A DNA stretch of 11,876 nucleotides from Nanobdellota archaeon (GTDB taxonomy: Archaea; Nanobdellota; Nanobdellia; Nanobdellales; Nanobdellaceae). The stretch spans positions 1 to 11,876 of the forward strand of contig JAIXNB010000015.1 in NCBI GenBank assembly GCA_020697515.1. The letters run 5' to 3'. The position numbers and the translations under genes were made by a program. Shown one piece after another: positions 1-10,408 of this stretch (within the stretch, counting starts at the first letter, position 1; each line of letters begins with the position of its first letter). A model generated the notes under the pieces. The model ran no database searches and was not told the origin of the DNA. It saw only the letters and a list, made by a program, of their open reading frames with translations.

Positions 1-60
1 AGTGATAGGGAGGATAATAGAGGTGTATCCTAATGGATGGCAAGTTGATATAAATTCTCC
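1..60. repeat. Left arm of a 60-bp inverted repeat (pairs with 146-205)
   Basis: Base-by-base check, position i against 206-i: 58 of 60 are Watson-Crick. The two exceptions (31/175 and 55/151) are both T opposite G. The arm starts exactly at window position 1. Confidence 0.95.
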
Positions 61-378
61 ATAAGTATAATAATTATTTAGATCTGTTTTTGTTATATCT
101 ACAAATTCATATACAGCATCTCTTATTAACAAGAATCCATGGTAAGGAGAGTTTATATCAACTTGCCATCCATTGGGATACACCTCTATTATCCTCCCTA
201 TCACTATATCTCCTTTATTTGGTATATATATCCCAGATAGAGGAGTAATTTTTATTTTGTTCCCTCTAACTTCTTTTATAGCTACTGAGGATGCTACTGC
301 ATAGTCTCCAATAAAATAATAAGCACCCTCCAGCCTGTCCCCTCTTTTACCTATTACAGTCCCTGGTACCACTATCAT
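1..378 (-). CDS. rrp4: Exosome complex RNA-binding cap subunit Rrp4, N-terminal 126 codons (partial; runs off window start; the last ~20 codons lie in an inverted-repeat arm and do not look like Rrp4)
   Basis: Manual minus-strand translation from ATG at 378: MIVVPGTVIGKRGDRLEGAYYFIGDYAVASSVAIKEVRGNKIKITPLSGIYIPNKGDIVIGRIIEVYPNGWQVDINSPYHGFLLIRD... This matches the Rrp4 pattern: VVPG N-terminal domain, then PL.G.Y.P..GD.VIG.V......W.VDI..PY.A.L of the S1 domain. No stop codon down to position 1. The ATG overlaps the TGA of the upstream gene (ATGA at 378-375). Confidence 0.75.
   Translation of the reverse strand, partial: MIVVPGTVIGKRGDRLEGAYYFIGDYAVASSVAIKEVRGNKIKITPLSGIYIPNKGDIVIGRIIEVYPNGWQVDINSPYHGFLLIRDAVYEFVDITKTDLNNYYTYGEFISTCHPLGYTSIILPIT
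146..205. repeat. Right arm of the 60-bp inverted repeat; this arm is genuine rrp4 S1-domain coding sequence
   Basis: Reverse complement of 1-60 apart from two transitions. On the minus strand it encodes, in frame, IVIGRIIEVYPNGWQVDINSP. Confidence 0.95.
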
Positions 379-824
379 TCTATTTCTCTTTTTATTTTAT
401 CAAATAGATCGATTAATTCTTTTAATTTGCTCTCAAATTCGTCTAATTTCTCTTTTAATCTTTCAATTTTCTTTTCGGCAATACTTTCATCAATCATTTT
501 TATTTCTAGCGCTCCTTTACTCTTCACCAATTTCTCATAAACCTTTTGAATAATTTTTCCAGCTTCAGTTTTTCCCTCCAGATGATTTCTTATTGTTGTT
601 TCAGACCTACCTACTTCTTCCGCTATCTGCTCGATAGTCATGCCTGCTTTTCTTCTAGCGAATGCTGCGGCAGCTACAGCTAAAGAATCTACCCATGTAA
701 CTCTATCACGAGGATCCTTTATTTTCTCTATAACCTCGGGATCAAATAATGCTGCCACTAACAAGGCTGTTTCTAGTTTTTTCACATCTTCTTTACCCAA
801 AGGTTGTAGAGGTACTACTTCCAT
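375..824 (-). CDS. Helix-turn-helix DNA-binding protein with C-terminal coiled coil (function unknown)
   Basis: 149-aa ORF. The central segment RRKAGMTIEQIAEEVGRSETTIRNHLEG is a typical HTH (TrpR / sigma-70 region 4-like). The C-terminal ~45 aa are heptad-like and K/E/L-rich (EKKIERLKEKLDEFESKLKELIDLFDKIKREIE). The stop overlaps the rrp4 start. Confidence 0.7.
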   Translation of the reverse strand: MEVVPLQPLGKEDVKKLETALLVAALFDPEVIEKIKDPRDRVTWVDSLAVAAAAFARRKAGMTIEQIAEEVGRSETTIRNHLEGKTEAGKIIQKVYEKLVKSKGALEIKMIDESIAEKKIERLKEKLDEFESKLKELIDLFDKIKREIE

Positions 825-854: not shown

Positions 855-962
855 TCAAATATAACCGAAAAAATAATGCTTGGATTTTAAAAATGTATAA
901 CCCCTCAGAAATTGGACTGATATTAAAATTAATTAAAAATAAATCAGATCGGGGTTTTAGTT

Positions 963-2063
963 CTACAGACCTTCTTTCAAAAGCCTAGTTAATAAGTATT
1001 TTTTCTCTCTCTCGTATTTTATTTTTACCAGATCCTCTCTCAACACGCGTAACACGTTACTTATAACAGAATACAACCCATATCCCTCACTAGATGCATA
1101 TAAAGATATTTTGCTACCAATCAATCTTGCTCTTACAACAAAGTACCTAGATCGTATTTTTTTAATGTGCATTATTAATGTTGGTCTTTCTCCTATCAAA
1201 TCTGTAAACCTTTGAACTAGTTTTTCTACTCTCTTTTTTATCCATTCTATATCGTACTCATCCAAGGGTATTCCATGAATTACTAGATTGAACTCCATCT
1301 TTTTATGATATGCTATATATCCCGCTAATATCTCTTTGGCAGATATCATACCCTTTAATTTAGAGTTAACTACTGGTATAGCAAATATTTTATTTTCTAG
1401 TAATAATCTTACAACATCTTTCAATTTGCTTTTGGGTTTTACAGTTAATAGGGGTGTAGACATTATACTTCTCACCTCTACCGAAAATCTTATTTCAGCA
1501 ATCTCACCAACTTTTGGTCGTTCTTTTTCAAATAGAATGTTTCTAACAATATCTCCCGCGGTTACCATCCCTACTGGCCTATCACTCTCATCTAGGACTA
1601 CAAGTCTAGATACTCCTTTTCTCTTCATTATTGCTATTGCTTTCGTTACAGGTTCTCTTTCATATATGGTAACAACCTCCTCATGCATGTATTTCTCTAC
1701 TTTTTCATTAAGAAACTCAGAATCTTTTATTTTCTCTAAAACATCATATATATCTATAATAGCAATCTCTCCACTCGCAGATTCAATTGGAAGTACCCTT
1801 ACATTGGCAGCAACCATCTTTTCTATAACTTTTAATATATCACTAGTATCACTTTCTGATAGAGGTCTCACTCGTATTACGTAATTTCCTATTTTTGCAT
1901 CTAAATTGAAAGCAACTTTTACGAGAACATCTCTAGGCAGAATTCCATAGTATTTCCCCTCCTCATCCAAGACTATTATATGTTTATTTTCTTTTATTGC
2001 TCCAAGAATTTCTCGAATTTTTGTATCTTTCTTTGCAAAAACTATTCTATCATCAGACTCCAT
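963..2063 (-). CDS. Four-CBS-domain protein (two Bateman modules) fused to a C-terminal HPF/RaiA-like (S30AE-like) domain
   Basis: 366-aa ORF. Four CBS motifs are recognisable: HIIVLDEEGKYYGILPRDVL, VRVLPIESASGEIAIIDIYDVL, VSRLVVLDESDRPVGMVTAGDIV and IFAIPVVNSKLKGMISAKEIL. The C-terminal 111 aa follow a different pattern (next feature). Confidence 0.9.
   Translation of the reverse strand: MESDDRIVFAKKDTKIREILGAIKENKHIIVLDEEGKYYGILPRDVLVKVAFNLDAKIGNYVIRVRPLSESDTSDILKVIEKMVAANVRVLPIESASGEIAIIDIYDVLEKIKDSEFLNEKVEKYMHEEVVTIYEREPVTKAIAIMKRKGVSRLVVLDESDRPVGMVTAGDIVRNILFEKERPKVGEIAEIRFSVEVRSIMSTPLLTVKPKSKLKDVVRLLLENKIFAIPVVNSKLKGMISAKEILAGYIAYHKKMEFNLVIHGIPLDEYDIEWIKKRVEKLVQRFTDLIGERPTLIMHIKKIRSRYFVVRARLIGSKISLYASSEGYGLYSVISNVLRVLREDLVKIKYEREKKYLLTRLLKEGL
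966..1298 (-). other. C-terminal domain (aa 256-366) resembling the ribosome hibernation promoting factor fold (HPF/RaiA/YfiA family)
   Basis: Sequence: MEFNLVIHGIPLDEYDIEWIKKRVEKLVQRFTDLIGERPTLIMHIKKIRSRYFVVRARLIGSKISLYASSEGYGLYSVISNVLRVLREDLVKIKYEREKK. It follows the beta-alpha-beta-beta-beta-alpha order and the conserved positions of the family as I recall them: M.[IL].[IV].G start, K.[LV].KL...F helix, [LV].[IV]...KK strand, AS.EG..[LM]Y..I motif, and a basic terminal helix. Confidence 0.6.
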
Positions 2064-2084: not shown

Positions 2085-2093
2085 TTTATTTAT
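2085..2093 (-). promoter_or_regulatory. Candidate TATA box for the CBS/HPF-like gene
   Basis: Minus-strand ATAAATAAA, centred ~26 nt upstream of the ATG at 2063. Confidence 0.35.
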
Positions 2094-3477: not shown

Positions 3478-4107
3478 TTACTTTTTCTTTGATACAGCTT
3501 CATCTAATATCTCTGCTGGGAGTACAAAATACCGTCCTACTTTCTTCTTCCAGTTTTTCTCTTTCTTTTTTTTCTTAGAGTCATCAGTTAGCCATCTTGT
3601 CAACATTATAAAAACTCCAACTAGTACTAAAAATGTAAATAATCCAGTTTCTATTAAATACTTATATAGACTTTCTAATATTAGTTTAGATATCATACCA
3701 ACTGCTGTTGGGTTCCCCTTGAATGCATACAATGCTGCAATCACTACTGAGAGTCCTAAAACTCCGCTAAATATAGCCTGCCTCTTTTTTCTAGTATCTT
3801 CACCACCTGTTGGATTCCTAGCAAAAATACTGAATGCTATGAGTACCAGTAGTATAGTAAGAATCTCATAAAAAAACATTGCAAAAAACCTTTGAGTAAA
3901 TATTATATTATTTGTACTATATATATAATAAAGACTAAATACAAATGAGATCGCTACCATGATTCTTTCTTGATTTTTAAATATCCCTATTTTGTGTAAA
4001 AGCCCATATATCATTGTAAAAATTACCAAAAATGGCCCTAATAAGGTAGATATCCCATAGTTATTCAGGAGGCTCATAAATAAAGAGAGGTTTAACTCAG
4101 CGGCCAT
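3478..4107 (-). CDS. Paralogous 5-TM membrane protein, copy 3 (unrecognised family), with a long lysine-rich C-terminal tail
   Basis: 209-aa ORF. The N-terminus LLNNYGISTLLGPFLVIFTMIYGLLHKIGIF aligns with the same motif in the two upstream genes. About five hydrophobic spans. Tail: DDSKKKKKEKNWKKKVGRYFVLPAEILDEAVSKKK. Confidence 0.8.
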   Translation of the reverse strand: MAAELNLSLFMSLLNNYGISTLLGPFLVIFTMIYGLLHKIGIFKNQERIMVAISFVFSLYYIYSTNNIIFTQRFFAMFFYEILTILLVLIAFSIFARNPTGGEDTRKKRQAIFSGVLGLSVVIAALYAFKGNPTAVGMISKLILESLYKYLIETGLFTFLVLVGVFIMLTRWLTDDSKKKKKEKNWKKKVGRYFVLPAEILDEAVSKKK

Positions 4108-4126: not shown

Positions 4127-4684
4127 TTAATTACTATTATTGTTTGAGGATGTTTCGCTAGAGGAAAGCCATTTCATTAGCAACCAAAACACCACCACTA
4201 ATACAAGAATAGCTATTATATCTGGAGTTATTATTTTGCCTACAAACTGTGCAAAACCAAATCCCTCTAAATAACTTGCAGAAGTGCTTCCTCTAATCCC
4301 ATAGACTGCCAGGAGTACTATTACTATTATTGTTACAAGCGCTATTATACCACGTGCAGTATCCCCTATTTCTTCTGGTTTTATGAAAAATGCTATAGCA
4401 ATAGCAAATAGGAATAAACCTAGAATCCAAACTGTAGCATGAGGAATTAAGTATACCATCCATTCCATTAATTCCTGATGGGCTAATGCCATAAGTGTAA
4501 ATCCAAAAGCAAATCCAGCATGTAGTTTTCTACCTACACTATCGTCATTATCTATTTTAAATAGATTAGCGGCTTCCAAAAGCAAAAATACTATGGAATA
4601 TATTAAAATAAATGGTAAAATTATATTATAAAACCCATATGTTGATAAAGATGTAGTTGCTATCTCATAAAAGTTATATGTCAT
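4127..4684 (-). CDS. Paralogous 5-TM membrane protein, copy 2 (unrecognised family)
   Basis: 185-aa ORF. N-terminal motif SLSTYGFYNIILPFILIYSIVFLLLEAANLF. About five hydrophobic spans. Polar tail SSSETSSNNNSN. Confidence 0.8.
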   Translation of the reverse strand: MTYNFYEIATTSLSTYGFYNIILPFILIYSIVFLLLEAANLFKIDNDDSVGRKLHAGFAFGFTLMALAHQELMEWMVYLIPHATVWILGLFLFAIAIAFFIKPEEIGDTARGIIALVTIIVIVLLAVYGIRGSTSASYLEGFGFAQFVGKIITPDIIAILVLVVVFWLLMKWLSSSETSSNNNSN

Positions 4685-4689
4685 TTTTG

Positions 4690-5268
4690 TTAATTATTAT
4701 TTTGTTCTTGGGATTTGGGCTCTCTAACCAGCAAATAAGCAATTACTCCGAATGCTGCCAACATTAGTATAGCCCCTATATAATCTCCATATTTACTCCA
4801 GAAGCTCCCAGGAACTCCCGATCCCGAGATTCCCTTTAAGAGACCAAAATAGTTCAATATAACTAATATAAGAAGTATCGTTGCTGGTATTCCCATATAT
4901 TTTTTAAATTTAGCATAGGTATCCGTCTTTATTAGCTCTCCTTCAGGCAATGCAAAGGCTGCTACTACTAATATTATTGAAAATACTATTATTAGAAAAA
5001 TCGCTATTAATGGAACTACTCCTCTTATACTCGTTACAGCGTGATAAGACCCTATTACTATAGATGCTATTGCAAAAGCAATCATGGAGGATATGCTCCT
5101 TGCCATCTTTGCCTCTTTAACGTTATTACTATTGAATGCATCTCCAAAGATCCTTGTATTGAGGAGTATACCATATGTAAGTGCATAAACTAATATCCAA
5201 GGAAGTATTATGTTAAAAAATCCAAATTTATCTAGAAGATTAATCGCCCCTTCATAAATAGCAACCAT
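4690..5268 (-). CDS. Paralogous 5-TM membrane protein, copy 1 (unrecognised family)
   Basis: 192-aa ORF. N-terminal motif LLDKFGFFNIILPWILVYALTYGILLNTRIF. About five hydrophobic spans. Polar tail REPKSQEQNNN. Only 5 nt separate it from copy 2. Confidence 0.8.
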   Translation of the reverse strand: MVAIYEGAINLLDKFGFFNIILPWILVYALTYGILLNTRIFGDAFNSNNVKEAKMARSISSMIAFAIASIVIGSYHAVTSIRGVVPLIAIFLIIVFSIILVVAAFALPEGELIKTDTYAKFKKYMGIPATILLILVILNYFGLLKGISGSGVPGSFWSKYGDYIGAILMLAAFGVIAYLLVREPKSQEQNNN

Positions 5269-5316: not shown

Positions 5317-5526
5317 TTAGCCTTCTAATTCTTCTACGATTATGGCATTTGTTGGGCAAGCTTCCTCTGCTTTCTTTACAAGCATTATAGAATCCTTATC
5401 CTCCACTACTTTCCTCGTTTCTTTTGCTTTTCCATCTTTGTCAAAAATAAAAAGATCTTTAGATATTAAAACGCATGCACCACAAGCTATACATTTTTCT
5501 TTGTCTACATAAAAAAATATTCTCAT
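5317..5526 (-). CDS. Small single-cluster [4Fe-4S]/[3Fe-4S] ferredoxin (Pyrococcus/Thermotoga type)
   Basis: 69 aa: VDKEKCIACGACV...DGKA...ACPTNAI. It has the C-x2-C-x2-C ... C-P ligand pattern, and its length and layout are those of the ~65-aa archaeal monocluster ferredoxins. Confidence 0.85.
   Translation of the reverse strand: MRIFFYVDKEKCIACGACVLISKDLFIFDKDGKAKETRKVVEDKDSIMLVKKAEEACPTNAIIVEELEG
5471..5509. repeat. 39-bp exact direct repeat, copy 1 (within ferredoxin A)
   Basis: acgcatgcaccacaagctatacatttttctttgtctaca is identical to 5685-5723. Flanking bases differ on both sides. Confidence 0.95.
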
Positions 5527-5536
5527 TAAGAGAGAT

Positions 5537-5743
5537 TTATTCCTCTTCTGTAATTATTGCACCTGTTGGGCAGGCATCCTTCGCCTCTTTGACCTTCTGT
5601 ATTAGATCACCATCCGAGATTTTGGTTATTTTGGTCTGTGATTTTCCATCAGACTCAAATTCGAATATTTCTGGAGCTATTGCTACGCATGCACCACAAG
5701 CTATACATTTTTCTTTGTCTACAGAAACTACAATCTTTACCAT
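5537..5743 (-). CDS. Small single-cluster ferredoxin, tandem paralogue
   Basis: 68 aa: VDKEKCIACGACVAIAPEIFEFESDGKS...ACPTGAI. Same ligand pattern. It lies 10 nt upstream of the other copy. Confidence 0.85.
   Translation of the reverse strand: MVKIVVSVDKEKCIACGACVAIAPEIFEFESDGKSQTKITKISDGDLIQKVKEAKDACPTGAIITEEE
5685..5723. repeat. 39-bp exact direct repeat, copy 2 (within ferredoxin B)
   Basis: Identical to 5471-5509. Encodes VDKEKCIACGACV in both genes. Confidence 0.95.
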
Positions 5744-5857: not shown

Positions 5858-6382
5858 TTATACGGAAGAAGTGTTGTTTTGCTTGGAAAGTACAGCTTTT
5901 ATATTCTTTTTAACATTATTATAAACTTTCCACCATTTACCAATCTCGAGCCAATAATAATAAGGTACCAAATGTATATATTTCCTGTGAACTGTTGCAA
6001 GAACTTTGTAATTTTCCTTTAGTACTTTTCTTACAAGTTGCTTAAATTTTTCTGAATAGAATTCCATTGGCCCTATCTCGTCTATTACAATAATTCTATC
6101 TCTATACAAATCGATCTTATCCAGCATATATGAAGAAAATATATCCAAATTCTCCTTTATTATGAAATACTTTCCAATTCTATAGGGTGTTCTTACATTA
6201 GTGCTTGCGAGTAAAATTTTCTCGCCCCACGTAGCCACTATCTTAAACCCAACCCTCTTTTTGTTCTCTCTAATTTCCTCTGTCCAAAACCCAAAGAAAT
6301 TGTCTATTCCGAACTCTGTTATTACTCTCCTAATAAGGCTTGTTTTACCTGTCCTTGGATTACCTGAAATAAATATTTTCAT
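5858..6382 (-). CDS. Nucleoside-triphosphatase, THEP1 / NTPase_1 family
   Basis: 174 aa: MKIFISGNPRTGKTSLIRRV (P-loop), GFWTEEIRENKKRVGFKIV, IGKYFI, IIVIDEIGPMEFYSEKF (Walker B) and VLATVHRK. Order and spacing match the THEP1 family. The P-loop is slightly deviant (GNPRTGKT). A TATA-like AATATATTTT (6404-6413, minus) lies ~26 nt upstream. Confidence 0.85.
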   Translation of the reverse strand: MKIFISGNPRTGKTSLIRRVITEFGIDNFFGFWTEEIRENKKRVGFKIVATWGEKILLASTNVRTPYRIGKYFIIKENLDIFSSYMLDKIDLYRDRIIVIDEIGPMEFYSEKFKQLVRKVLKENYKVLATVHRKYIHLVPYYYWLEIGKWWKVYNNVKKNIKAVLSKQNNTSSV

Positions 6383-6544: not shown

Positions 6545-7372
6545 ATGACCATTAAAATTATGGATACTTATGTTAGGGTTACTGATTTTTTAGATTACTT
6601 ATTCTGTCCTCGAAAAATATATTTGAAGAGGGTTTTGGATCTAGAGGAAGAAAGAGGGGAAAAAGCATTATTTGGTACTCTAGTACACTCTGTTTTTGAT
6701 AGATTGAATGAGGTGGAAGAGAGTATAGTTTATGAAATAGACGATGAGTATTCATTCGATTATATCCTAAAGATATATGAAATAACAGCTAATAAAATAA
6801 TAAGCGATGTTTTAAACAACTATTCTAAGGAAATTGATAAATTTTCGCTATCTAAGGAATATCTATTCATAGAGTTGAAGAAACACATCTATGATGATGT
6901 ATATGAGAGAGCCAAGAATGTTTACAACACTATGAAGACCTATCAAGAGTATGGGATCTTTCTGTGGGACAAGTTAGAACCTAAAATAAAATCAGAATTA
7001 GAACTTCTATCAGATACTTTGAAAATCGTTGGGAGGGTTGATAGGATAGAATTCTATAGAGATTACATTATTCCTGTTGAAATAAAGTCAGGGAACTATT
7101 CTAATAGCCATATTTTTCAATTACATGCATATGCACTTTTACTTAAACATAATTTTCCAAGATATATTATTGATAGAGGAATAATATATTATACAAAATC
7201 TAGGAAGAGAAAGGAAGTAAGATTAAATTATAGATGTTTTAAGAGAGTTCTTACTATGAGAGATAGAATACTTAGTATAATAGAAAATGAACAAGATCCG
7301 GGTATGAATAAAAATCTAAATAAATGTGTAAAATGCACATTCTACGAAATTTGTAAAAAATTAAAATTATGA
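6545..7372 (+). CDS. cas4: Cas4-family (DUF83) RecB-like PD-(D/E)xK exonuclease with a 4-Cys Fe-S cluster signature; no cas or CRISPR neighbours
   Basis: 275 aa. N-terminal Cys in FLDYLFCPRKIYLK, GTLVHSVF, IVGRVDRIEF (motif II), IPVEIKSG (motif III), FQLHAYALLL (QxxxY), and C-terminal CVKCTFYEIC (C-x2-C-x5-C). Confidence 0.85.
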   Translation: MTIKIMDTYVRVTDFLDYLFCPRKIYLKRVLDLEEERGEKALFGTLVHSVFDRLNEVEESIVYEIDDEYSFDYILKIYEITANKIISDVLNNYSKEIDKFSLSKEYLFIELKKHIYDDVYERAKNVYNTMKTYQEYGIFLWDKLEPKIKSELELLSDTLKIVGRVDRIEFYRDYIIPVEIKSGNYSNSHIFQLHAYALLLKHNFPRYIIDRGIIYYTKSRKRKEVRLNYRCFKRVLTMRDRILSIIENEQDPGMNKNLNKCVKCTFYEICKKLKL

Positions 7373-7388
7373 AAAACTATAGGGAAAA

Positions 7389-7757
7389 ATGGAGGTTGAA
7401 GGGGTAATAGAAGCTATTAGCTATCGAAATAAAGGAATAAAAGTTAGAGGCAAATGGTACAGTGTTTCTGAAGATGTTTTAAAACAAGTTCAAAAAAATC
7501 ATAAAGTGAAGCTGACTTTGGACGATTTTGGAAATGTAATGGATATTAAAATATTAGGTTATGAAGAAAAGATAGATAAAGATATTAAAATTGAATCTCT
7601 TAGGGCATCAATCGAGATTCTAAAACTAGTCTTTCAATATGGACAACCATATGATATCTCACCGGCCACCCAATCTAATAATTTAGAGGAACAAGTAAGA
7701 CAGTTTACAACTATTCTAGAAAAAACATACAAAAGGATTTTAAATATGTTGAAATGA
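7389..7757 (+). CDS. Hypothetical 122-aa protein (beta-rich N-terminal half, helical C-terminal half), translationally coupled to the NFACT-R gene
   Basis: ORF begins MEVEGVIEAISYRNKGIKVRGKWYSVSEDVLK... No family recognised. Its TGA overlaps the next ATG (ATGA at 7754-7757), and it starts 16 nt after the cas4-like stop. Confidence 0.65.
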   Translation: MEVEGVIEAISYRNKGIKVRGKWYSVSEDVLKQVQKNHKVKLTLDDFGNVMDIKILGYEEKIDKDIKIESLRASIEILKLVFQYGQPYDISPATQSNNLEEQVRQFTTILEKTYKRILNMLK

Positions 7758-8533
7758 TTATCGAATTAGATAAAAGAAAATCCATCTTTGAAAATGCTTC
7801 TATTTATTTTGAAAAGGCTAAAAAGCTAAGAAGTAAGTTAAAAAGATTAGAAATCCAAATAAATGCTACTAAAGAGAAGATTTCCCAAATAGGTAAGGAA
7901 ATTGAAGATGAAAAAAGAAAACTGGAGAAAAAAAGAAAGAAAAAGTGGTATGAGAAATTTAGATGGTTCCATACTTCTAATGGATTTTTGTTAGTTGCAG
8001 GAAAGGACGCAATTACTAACGAAATATTGATAAGAAAATATCTTGATCATACTGATCTTGTTTTTCATGCAGAAATTCATGGATCGCCTTTTGGCGTGCT
8101 AAAAAGGGGAAAAGATGCTAATGAAGTAGATATTACTGAAGCGGCACAATTTGTTGCATCATATTCAAAAGCTTGGAAACAAAAACTGGCATATATAGAG
8201 GTCTATTATATATATCCTGAGCAAGTATCCAAACAGGCGCCAGCTGGGGAGTATCTACCAAAAGGCTCCTTTATGATCTATGGAAAAAAAAATTATGTTA
8301 GAGCTAAACTTGAAATAGCATTAGGAGTTGATCCTAATAAAAATCCAATACCTGGGGTTCCATCTTCAGTATCGAAGAAAACTAGCGAATATGTAGTTAT
8401 AATCCCTGGTAATAAGAAGCCTCTAGAAACTGCAAAAGAAATATCAAGTTTTTTAAAAATACCTGTAGAAGATATACTACCTTTTATCCCAGGGGAAAGC
8501 GAAATAGTTAAAAAAGTTAGTGCGATTAGGTAA
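7754..8533 (+). CDS. Truncated NFACT/RqcH (Rqc2/Tae2/FbpA-family) homologue: distal coiled-coil helix, NFACT-R (DUF814) and C-terminal region only
   Basis: 259 aa. NASIYFEKAKKLRSKLKRLE followed by a K/E coiled coil, then WYEKFRWFHTSNGFLLVAGKDAITNEILIRKYLDHTDLVFHAEIHGSPFGVLK. This is the classic NFACT-R motif (F.W..S.[DN]G..[IL].[VA]G[KR][DN]...N..L......D...HA...G[SA]). There is no NFACT-N or HhH portion. Confidence 0.85.
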   Translation: MIIELDKRKSIFENASIYFEKAKKLRSKLKRLEIQINATKEKISQIGKEIEDEKRKLEKKRKKKWYEKFRWFHTSNGFLLVAGKDAITNEILIRKYLDHTDLVFHAEIHGSPFGVLKRGKDANEVDITEAAQFVASYSKAWKQKLAYIEVYYIYPEQVSKQAPAGEYLPKGSFMIYGKKNYVRAKLEIALGVDPNKNPIPGVPSSVSKKTSEYVVIIPGNKKPLETAKEISSFLKIPVEDILPFIPGESEIVKKVSAIR

Positions 8534-10218: not shown

Positions 10219-10309
10219 ACCATTAATTTATTATTTTTTAAATAATATCTAGAAATTCTCGACTTGTCACAATTTTTAGCAATTTTATCTCATAACCATT
10301 AACCGTATT

Positions 10310-10408
10310 GGGCCCGCGGGGATTCGAACCCCGGACCTCCGGCTTTCTTAGATGTACGAGCGCCAAGTCTTATAAGGCCGGCGCTCTCACCGCTGAGCTA
10401 CGGGCCCT
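10310..10408 (-). tRNA. tRNA-Ile, anticodon UAU, with a 26-nt intron at the canonical 37/38 position; CCA not encoded
   Basis: Minus-strand manual fold: GGGCCCG-TA-GCTC-AGCGGTGA-GAGC-G-CCGGC-CTTATA[intron]A-GCCGG-AGGTC-CGGGG-TTCGAAT-CCCCG-CGGGCCC-A. All stems are fully Watson-Crick, the T-loop is TTCGAAT and the discriminator is A73. The anticodon TAT is at 10375-10373. Confidence 0.85.
10346..10371 (-). other. tRNA intron (26 nt) with a bulge-helix-bulge-like context
   Basis: Positions 32-35 (CTTA) pair with the intron's TAAG to give a 4-bp central helix. It is flanked by 3-nt bulges: TA|A on the 5' side and AA|A on the 3' side. The outer helix is weak (about 2 bp). Confidence 0.7.

Follow-up and report, generated by a model that had tools for sequence, protein, structure and literature searches.

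Does a host-dependent nanoarchaeon carry a factor that parks its idle ribosomes? The question is raised by a gene on the minus strand of an 11,876-nt stretch of DNA (hereafter the window), which comprises positions 1 to 11,876 of contig JAIXNB010000015.1 from a Nanobdellota archaeon (assembly GCA_020697515.1). The initial annotation, made from the letters and a list of open reading frames (ORFs), proposed that this gene fuses four CBS domains to a domain of the ribosome-hibernation family HPF/RaiA and that its product silences translation according to energy state. By homology, we consider it probable (roughly 85%) that the gene is a Nanopusillus (Nanoarchaeales, DPANN) ortholog of the archaeal factor HibA/AHA, with a role in ribosome hibernation. 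For HibA/AHA, published work already covers the architecture and fold, how ribosomes are bound, physiology, distribution, and evolution, and within that framework the protein is a nanoarchaeal ortholog with minor structural and contextual peculiarities. Reading the sequence blind, the initial annotation independently rediscovered an architecture described by three groups in 2025-2026 as a major hibernation system of archaea. Its premise that archaea have no established HPF family no longer holds, as HibA/AHA occurs in 47% of 4026 archaeal genomes (PMC13324472).

The gene and its parts are as follows.

963..2063 including the stop codon, minus strand: hibA/AHA-type gene (ORF list, homology)
1299..2063, minus strand: N-terminal CBS tetrad, two Bateman modules, residues 1-255 (four Pfam CBS stretches, Foldseek)
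1536..1700, minus strand: CBS3, residues 122-176, with a canonical G-h-h-T-x-x-D motif (G165..T168..D171) (best Pfam CBS stretch)
1485..1532, minus strand: extended CBS3-CBS4 loop, residues 178-193, EKERPKVGEIAEIRF (alignment to residues 190-207 of the Pyrococcus abyssi protein, Pa-HibA)
1314..1478, approximate, minus strand: CBS4, residues about 196-250, with the motif G238-M-I-S241-A-K-E244 (Pfam, secondary structure of the model)
966..1298, minus strand: C-terminal HPF/RaiA (S30AE-type) domain, residues 256-366 (TIGR00741, profiles, hhalign, Foldseek)

The ORF runs from an ATG to a TAG at 965-963 and encodes 366 residues with a computed isoelectric point (pI) of 9.4. Residue 256 begins at nucleotide 1298 and residues 256-366 occupy nucleotides 966-1298; the ORF, the mapping of the domain, and the peptide quoted in the initial annotation are all correct. 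An identical protein (P0001) is deposited at NCBI as [quoted passage not shown] and is found on contigs of the metagenome-assembled genome assemblies GCA_015662215.1 and GCA_015662495.1 and of JGI metagenome 3300013798; taxonomy places Nanopusillus in the Nanoarchaeales/Nanobdellota. In a Nei-Gojobori comparison with the gene of an 80%-identical relative, the ratio of nonsynonymous to synonymous substitution rates was 0.12 for the whole gene; taken separately, the CBS and HPF parts gave 0.13 and 0.10. Purifying selection acts on the gene, and because the ratio is low in both parts, both modules are maintained by selection.

Homology to HibA/AHA and the C-terminal domain

With HMMER, residues 14-357 of the protein aligned collinearly with residues 21-381 of P. 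abyssi HibA (chain 9sr9_H; E 3.2e-30). This chain is labeled “Dehydrogenase” in the PDB, and its entry, 9SR9, belongs to the cryo-electron microscopy (cryo-EM) study of HibA, which appeared as a preprint on 11 Oct 2025 (10.1101/2025.10.11.676729) and then as Madru et al., Nat Commun 27 Apr 2026 (PMC13324472). HibA is P. abyssi PAB0961 (UniProt Q9UYR4, PDB 9sr9 series), a protein of 392 residues that was seen in hibernating 70S ribosomes; residues 1-269 form four CBS domains and residues 270-392 an HPF/RaiA-like domain. The C-terminal domain occupies the 30S subunit's mRNA/tRNA channel, the CBS module is found at three sites on the 50S subunit, at the peptidyl-transferase center (PTC), uL5, and the L1 stalk, and loop 190-207 encircles A2834 at the PTC (PMC13324472). 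AHA, the Haloferax volcanii member of the same family (HVO_2384/D4GWN2; Souza et al., bioRxiv Feb 2026, PMC12934967), holds two AMP molecules between CBS3 and CBS4, and its knockout loses ribosomal proteins. Ribosome binding and inhibition of translation are known for the proteins from P. abyssi, Thermococcus barophilus, and H. volcanii (PMC13324472; PMC12934967).

The family has 3,160 AHA homologs over 17 phyla (PMC12934967), is present in 17 of 21 archaeal phyla, and is largely mutually exclusive among genomes with the Sri/CM families (PMC13324472; PMC12934967). Nanopusillus acidilobi and Nanoarchaeum equitans are among the genomes surveyed for HibA (PMC13324472). The window protein shares with HibA the order of modules, first a CBS tetrad and then a C-terminal HPF/RaiA domain, together with an extended loop between CBS3 and CBS4 and an HPF domain that is basic and ends in a long helix. 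Unlike HibA, it has 366 rather than 392 residues, lacks a 2-residue insertion between beta13 and alpha11 and a 5-residue insertion between beta14 and beta15, and comes from an obligate nanoarchaeal symbiont rather than from a free-living member of the Thermococcales. With AHA, which we compared by its description, it shares the AMPK-gamma-like CBS tetrad joined to an HPF domain, an extended loop in the place of loop 3 of CBS3, which in AHA inserts into the PTC, and canonical motifs at the CBS3/CBS4 junction where AHA holds its two AMP molecules; a difference is that the window protein is basic and AHA belongs to a halophile whose proteome is acidic.

The C-terminal domain itself was recognized by several comparisons. 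TIGR00741, the NCBIfam model for yfiA/HPF, matches residues 273-355 with an E value of 1e-4 in the whole protein and 1.3e-5 in the domain alone (25.6 bits). A phmmer search of the PDB with the domain gave weak but end-to-end alignments to the HPF proteins of Vibrio cholerae and Escherichia coli; in the latter, KLVQRF stands opposite KLEQYF and ASSEGYGLYSVI opposite ASAEGQDMYAAI, in line with the motifs named in the initial annotation. A profile of 5 nanoarchaeal domains (A2) found E. coli HPF end to end at an E value of 3.6e-4, and a profile of 16 sequences (A4) found P. abyssi HibA at 1.5e-13 and E. coli HPF at 2.6e-9, with all 27 of the PDB chains listed being HPF, RaiA, protein Y, S30 type, or HibA type. 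In profile-profile comparison by hhalign, A2 matched the standalone protein P0016, which itself scores 53 bits on Pfam PF02482 (S30AE), with a probability of 94.7% and an E value of 5.9e-8 over 96 columns. Three relatives of the same architecture (P0011, P0012, and P0013) also pass PF02482, at 27.6-35.4 bits against a gathering score of 23.7. Since Pfam S30AE itself has no match to the window sequence, homology is shown via NCBIfam, the family profiles, hhalign, and comparison of folds.

An AlphaFold2 model of the domain alone was confident (predicted local distance difference test [pLDDT], 94.1; predicted TM score, 0.82) and has the topology of the HPF type. Against the PDB, Foldseek ranks 1 to 36 were all HPF, RaiA, or pY, with target-normalized TM scores of 0.5-0.86 and root-mean-square deviations of about 2 A; the matches include 6h4n_x (E 1.2e-6, TM 0.85, 2.2 A) and 4hei_A (TM 0.86), and unrelated folds begin at rank 37 with TM scores of about 0.3. 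The resemblance to HPF exceeds chance. We also weighed a generic CBS regulator whose C-terminal domain is an unrelated ferredoxin-like or ACT module, or resembles HPF by accident, and which might then act in metabolic regulation or as an HhpR-like transcription factor. The miss by Pfam S30AE would fit such a protein, as would the bare NCBI name and the PDB label of the HibA chain, but every significant profile match and each of the top 36 fold matches is HPF/RaiA, down to Foldseek rank 36 there is neither ACT nor any other family, the hhalign match and the relatives above the Pfam threshold point the same way, and Pfam and NCBIfam show no DNA-binding or catalytic domain in the window protein. 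We regard this alternative as extremely improbable. An ACT/ferredoxin-like assignment of the C-terminal domain was rejected on the A4 profile, Foldseek ranks 1 to 36, and the hhalign probability. In sum, the HPF/RaiA call of the initial annotation is borne out at the level of sequence profiles, of profile against profile, and of the predicted fold, as well as by the end-to-end match to HibA, and none of the outcomes that it had named as speaking against its proposal (no profile-profile similarity, another fold, or another family) was found.

Several observations weigh against the assignment to HibA. The TIGR00741 score falls below the curated cutoff of 40.9 bits, PF02482 has no match at E <= 10 to either the whole protein or the domain alone, and identity to bacterial HPF is just 16-24%. 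Relative to Pa-HibA, the loop equivalent to the PTC loop is shortened by 3 residues, and in the HMMER alignment to Pa-HibA the window protein has gaps of 2 residues at beta13-alpha11 and 5 residues at beta14-beta15. By sequence, then, the protein is a divergent HPF/RaiA homolog that lies under the curated family thresholds.

The missing insertions deserve a closer look. In Pa-HibA, these “archaeal-specific” elements contact the uS19 tail (beta13-alpha11) and uS12 (beta14-beta15), and removal of both left in vitro inhibition unchanged (PMC13324472); they are a described trait of Pa-HibA, not a defining criterion of the HibA/AHA family. At the beta14-beta15 site of the family alignment, P0005 and P0007-P0017 carry 4-8 residues that are missing from the window protein and P0002-P0004; this length polymorphism lies at the HPF beta2-beta3 hairpin (columns about 342-350 of alignment A3, residues about 305-307 of the window protein). 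The window clade is thus a natural compact variant of the HPF domain, with a length nearer that of bacterial HPF.

Compared with the bacterial and plastid proteins HPF, RaiA (YfiA, pY), and long HPF (PF02482, TIGR00741, COG1544), the window domain aligns end to end with the HPF proteins of E. coli and V. cholerae, of about 95 residues, and retains, besides a basic terminal helix, the A-S-x-E-G-x-x-[LM]-Y motif. Apart from the low identity and the subthreshold scores, it differs in its N-terminal CBS tetrad, the bacterial proteins being either standalone or, in long HPF, extended by a C-terminal dimerization domain; formation of 100S dimers is not implied for the window protein. The C-terminal domain is basic (pI 9.8), which is consistent with binding in the 30S channel, and by homology it would be the plug of the small-subunit mRNA/tRNA channel.

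Close relatives of the protein stand at 80%, 54%, 54%, and 51% identity, and the word-indexed homolog search gave 5 close relatives. An exhaustive search of 1.84 billion representative proteins with the domain profile returned 12 matches at E <= 1e-3, of which 10 have 363-390 residues and carry the domain at the C terminus, the other 2 being standalone proteins of about 100 residues; that there are just 12 reflects the fast evolution of the domain. A scan of GTDB species genome contigs with the 5-sequence alignment gave only a chance CBS match in Propionispira. Annotation of the family is inconsistent across sources. The P0010 and P0013 protein clusters are called just “CBS domain-containing protein” at NCBI, Nanopusillus relatives of 36% identity carry the IMG name [quoted passage not shown] and some close relatives of these two clusters are “ribosomal subunit interface protein” in IMG. 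PDB entry 9l96 (also 9l98, 9l9c, and 9l9v) contains a 406-residue “CBS domain-containing protein” (chain 9l96_a) that matches the CBS part at an E value of 5e-11 and the HPF-domain profile at residues 296-385 (E 5e-5), and it is probably, from these matches, another solved factor of the HibA/AHA type; our literature search found no paper citing 9l96.

The CBS tetrad and adenylate binding

Pfam finds CBS in four stretches of the 366-residue protein (E 4.4e-32, 110.6 bits). An AlphaFold2 model of the full-length protein, built on 14 relatives, has a mean pLDDT of 83.5 and shows the CBS tetrad followed by the C-terminal domain. Foldseek matched the modeled tetrad to 3ddj, SriA (9znf_4), MJ1225, and AMPK-gamma with E values of 1e-15 to 1e-18, the best being 3.7e-18. 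The four CBS motifs in two Bateman modules described in the initial annotation are thus found by Pfam and by a model that matches solved tetrads. The Foldseek copy of the PDB ends on 2026-04-08, and 9sr9 is absent among the 50 matches listed for the full-length model.

When the CBS module alone was compared with PDB sequences, HibA (9sr9_H) came first at an E value of 1.8e-22; the next best chain was 9zni_6 at 1.9e-17, with SriC/D, MJ1225, SriA/B, and SSO3205 at that value or weaker. By sequence, the module appears nearer to HibA than to other CBS-tetrad families, which agrees with the monophyly reported for the CBS module of HibA. These other families include hibernation factors that consist of CBS tetrads only, namely, Dri of the Thermoproteota (9e6q/9e7f), SriA-D of Methanosarcina (9znf/9zng/9zni, PMC13004131), and ARC-A/P of Methanolobus (10.64898/2026.01.19.700304). 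Their tetrads are homologous to that of the window protein (E values of 1e-13 to 1e-17 in phmmer and of 1e-12 to 1e-18 in Foldseek), contain an extended loop, and bind ribosomes, but they lack the HPF domain, Dri has two tetrads, and Sri and ARC are separate proteins. A tetrad-only factor was ruled out for the window gene, as its product has an HPF domain and a CBS module nearer that of HibA.

The canonical ribose/phosphate-binding motif is kept only in CBS3 (G165-M-V-T-A-G-D171) and CBS4 (G238-M-I-S-A-K-E244), where it is conserved, and is degenerate in CBS1 and CBS2; among 14 aligned relatives, G165, D171, and G238 are invariant or nearly so. This matches the location of the nucleotide site in HibA and AHA, and AMP, ADP, or ATP is probably bound at the CBS3/CBS4 junction. 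By homology, the tetrad would be the module for binding both the large subunit and adenylates. The extended loop between CBS3 and CBS4, residues 178-193, aligns with Pa-HibA 190-207, and its EKER..GE motif is kept in relatives; by this alignment, it is the counterpart of the “PTC loop” of HibA and “loop 3” of AHA. In the full-length model the pLDDT drops below 50 at residues 179-192, within this loop, as would be expected if it becomes ordered only on the ribosome.

The steps of the hibernation mechanism come from cryo-EM, knockouts, and isothermal titration calorimetry on the P. abyssi and H. volcanii systems (PMC13324472; PMC12934967) and are transferred here by homology. The basic HPF domain would plug the decoding region and mRNA channel of the small subunit, the tethered CBS tetrad would fill the vacant tRNA sites of the large subunit, and the CBS3-CBS4 loop could enter the PTC. 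Together the two modules would hold an empty 70S ribosome closed, silent, and shielded from degradation until the factor is displaced by competing tRNA and mRNA.

Whether the same HibA-type protein is also a true adenylate-gated switch, as the initial annotation proposed, is a separate matter. [quoted passage not shown] The restriction of the G-h-h-[T/S]-x-x-[D/E] motif to CBS3 and CBS4, with its near-invariant positions, favors this idea, as does the preference of Pa-HibA for AMP (Kd, 12 uM) over ADP (65 uM) and ATP (113 uM) (PMC13324472). In AHA, the two AMP molecules lie beside loop 3, and the authors propose AMP-stabilized loop insertion (PMC12934967); ATP is reported to release ARC-A/P, which are related CBS factors (10.64898/2026.01.19.700304). 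However, 5 mM AMP or ATP left the conformational classes of reconstituted Pa-HibA:70S complexes largely unchanged (PMC13324472), a result that tells against gating and to some degree also against the HibA reading itself. The argument from host dependence draws on what is generally known about Nanoarchaeota. Gating by adenylates is still a hypothesis even for the characterized homologs, and for the window protein we consider it tentatively possible.

Linkage to the exosome genes

Next to the gene for the putative HibA ortholog lie the following features.

2085..2093, minus strand: TATA-like box ATAAATAAA, -30..-22 relative to the ATG (sequence inspection)
921..945, minus strand: T-rich tract just past the stop codon (tttatttttaattaatttt) (read directly from the sequence)
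375..824, minus strand: downstream neighbor, a 149-residue helix-turn-helix (HTH) protein (TIGR03879, Pfam HTH_40)
1..378, minus strand: start of the exosome subunit gene rrp4, cut at the window end (PF21266 S1_RRP4)

The TATA-like box suggests that hibA has its own promoter and a leaderless or short-leader mRNA, and the T-rich tract is a possible archaeal oligo-T terminator. The HTH protein matches Pfam HTH_40 (E 1.2e-7) and the TIGR03879 “near_KaiC_dom” regulatory domain (78.3 bits, cutoff 65.1); its gene keeps its position in relatives except in the P0010 lineage, which has none. The rrp4 gene overlaps the HTH gene by 4 nt and was called from PF21266 in L001-L004, where the locus is identical. 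In L007, L011, and L013, rrp41 (RNase_PH) comes after rrp4.

Down to 36% identity, all of the nanoarchaeal relatives examined have hibA and rrp4-rrp41 on one strand, with hibA directly upstream. The gap from hibA to the next gene is 138 nt in the window and 25-41 nt in relatives with the HTH gene; in the P0010 lineage, hibA ends 1 nt before rrp4 (gap of 1 nt in L011/L012). The hibA-exosome order is seen at window positions 1-824 (minus strand) and at L011 5001-7460, L006 6001-8989, and L013 5001-8103. In the archaeal exosome superoperon, the position upstream of rrp4-rrp41 is often that of aSBDS. Beyond the Nanoarchaeales, we checked for rrp4 next to P0013 and P0014, and it was absent there. 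The syntenic block extends over ~10 kb and includes the C-terminal half of RqcH, a Cas4-like nuclease, two ferredoxins, three membrane proteins, hibA, and the exosome genes. Because this whole block is syntenic and P0013 and P0014 are not adjacent to rrp4, the linkage of hibA to rrp4 may go back to an inherited gene order and not to a functional link.

The same arrangement could mean that a HibA-derived protein is mainly tied to the RNA exosome, for example, in regulating or shielding Rrp4/Rrp41 substrates. Its place at the head of the rrp4-rrp41 cluster in all nanoarchaeal relatives examined and the 1-nt gap in L011/L012 would agree with such a role. Set against it are the synteny, which in small genomes may by itself explain the linkage, the lack of rrp4 beside the distant members P0013 and P0014, and, in the window, the TATA-like box and the 138-nt spacer with its T-run. 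The conserved HPF fold speaks instead for ribosome binding, and we judge a primary exosome role very unlikely.

A broader proposal combines these peculiarities with HibA-type hibernation: a streamlined hibA without the uS12/uS19 insertions would be the first gene of a hibA-[HTH]-rrp4-rrp41 cluster, co-regulated with RNA decay, and its AMP-sensing CBS3/CBS4 pair would be tied to host-supplied adenylate. If true, ribosome protection would be co-regulated with the RNA-decay machinery that otherwise degrades idle ribosomes, and the translation of an obligate symbiont would be tied to an adenylate pool supplied largely by its host. We consider the combination speculative and unlikely. In our literature search, we found no paper tying hibernation factors to rrp4 synteny or dealing with nanoarchaeal hibernation specifically.

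Nanoarchaea are a lineage known for very small genomes. The biological value of the window gene is incremental, in that a host-dependent nanoarchaeon appears to keep a full-length HibA under purifying selection, and the points on the nanoarchaeal protein raise no new question. The window HibA would be a natural “double-deletion” variant of the HPF domain that heads an exosome gene cluster, and a compact HibA of this kind could guide the design of a minimal HibA and work on ribosome parking in host-detached symbionts.

Other features of the window

The remaining features upstream of hibA are as follows.

3478-4107, 4127-4684, and 4690-5268, minus strand: three tandem multipass membrane protein genes, 185-209 residues (ORFs)
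5317-5526 and 5537-5743, minus strand: two tandem small ferredoxins, 68-69 residues (Pfam Fer4_13/Fer4_15)
5858-6382: THEP1-type NTPase gene adjoining the ferredoxin pair
6545-7372, plus strand: Cas4-family PD-(D/E)XK nuclease (TIGR00372, 100 bits)
7754-8533, with the overlapping ORF 7389-7757 (plus strand), plus strand: C-terminal half of RqcH (NFACT-R), 259 residues (NF041120)
10309-10407, minus strand: tRNA, 99 nt (Rfam, 66.8 bits, full model 1-71; missed by ARAGORN)

The three membrane protein genes lie immediately upstream of hibA in all nanoarchaeal relatives. They have no significant Pfam family, with subthreshold matches on one only, and their N termini look alike by eye (..YGF[FY]NIILP[FW]IL[IV]Y..). 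The ferredoxin pair is duplicated in several relatives, and the NTPase gene is present in the window, L006, and L013 and is missing from L011/L012. The Cas4-family nuclease keeps its position in relatives; no CRISPR array or other cas genes are visible in the window.

The 259-residue RqcH product covers only positions 381-643 of the 645-position NF041120 model (archaeal RqcH), scoring 311 bits against a cutoff of 400. This ribosome-rescue gene is conserved in relatives as a C-terminal half only, and it may be a split gene of a kind known from Nanoarchaeota. The extra length of the tRNA at 10309-10407 suggests an intron-containing archaeal tRNA.

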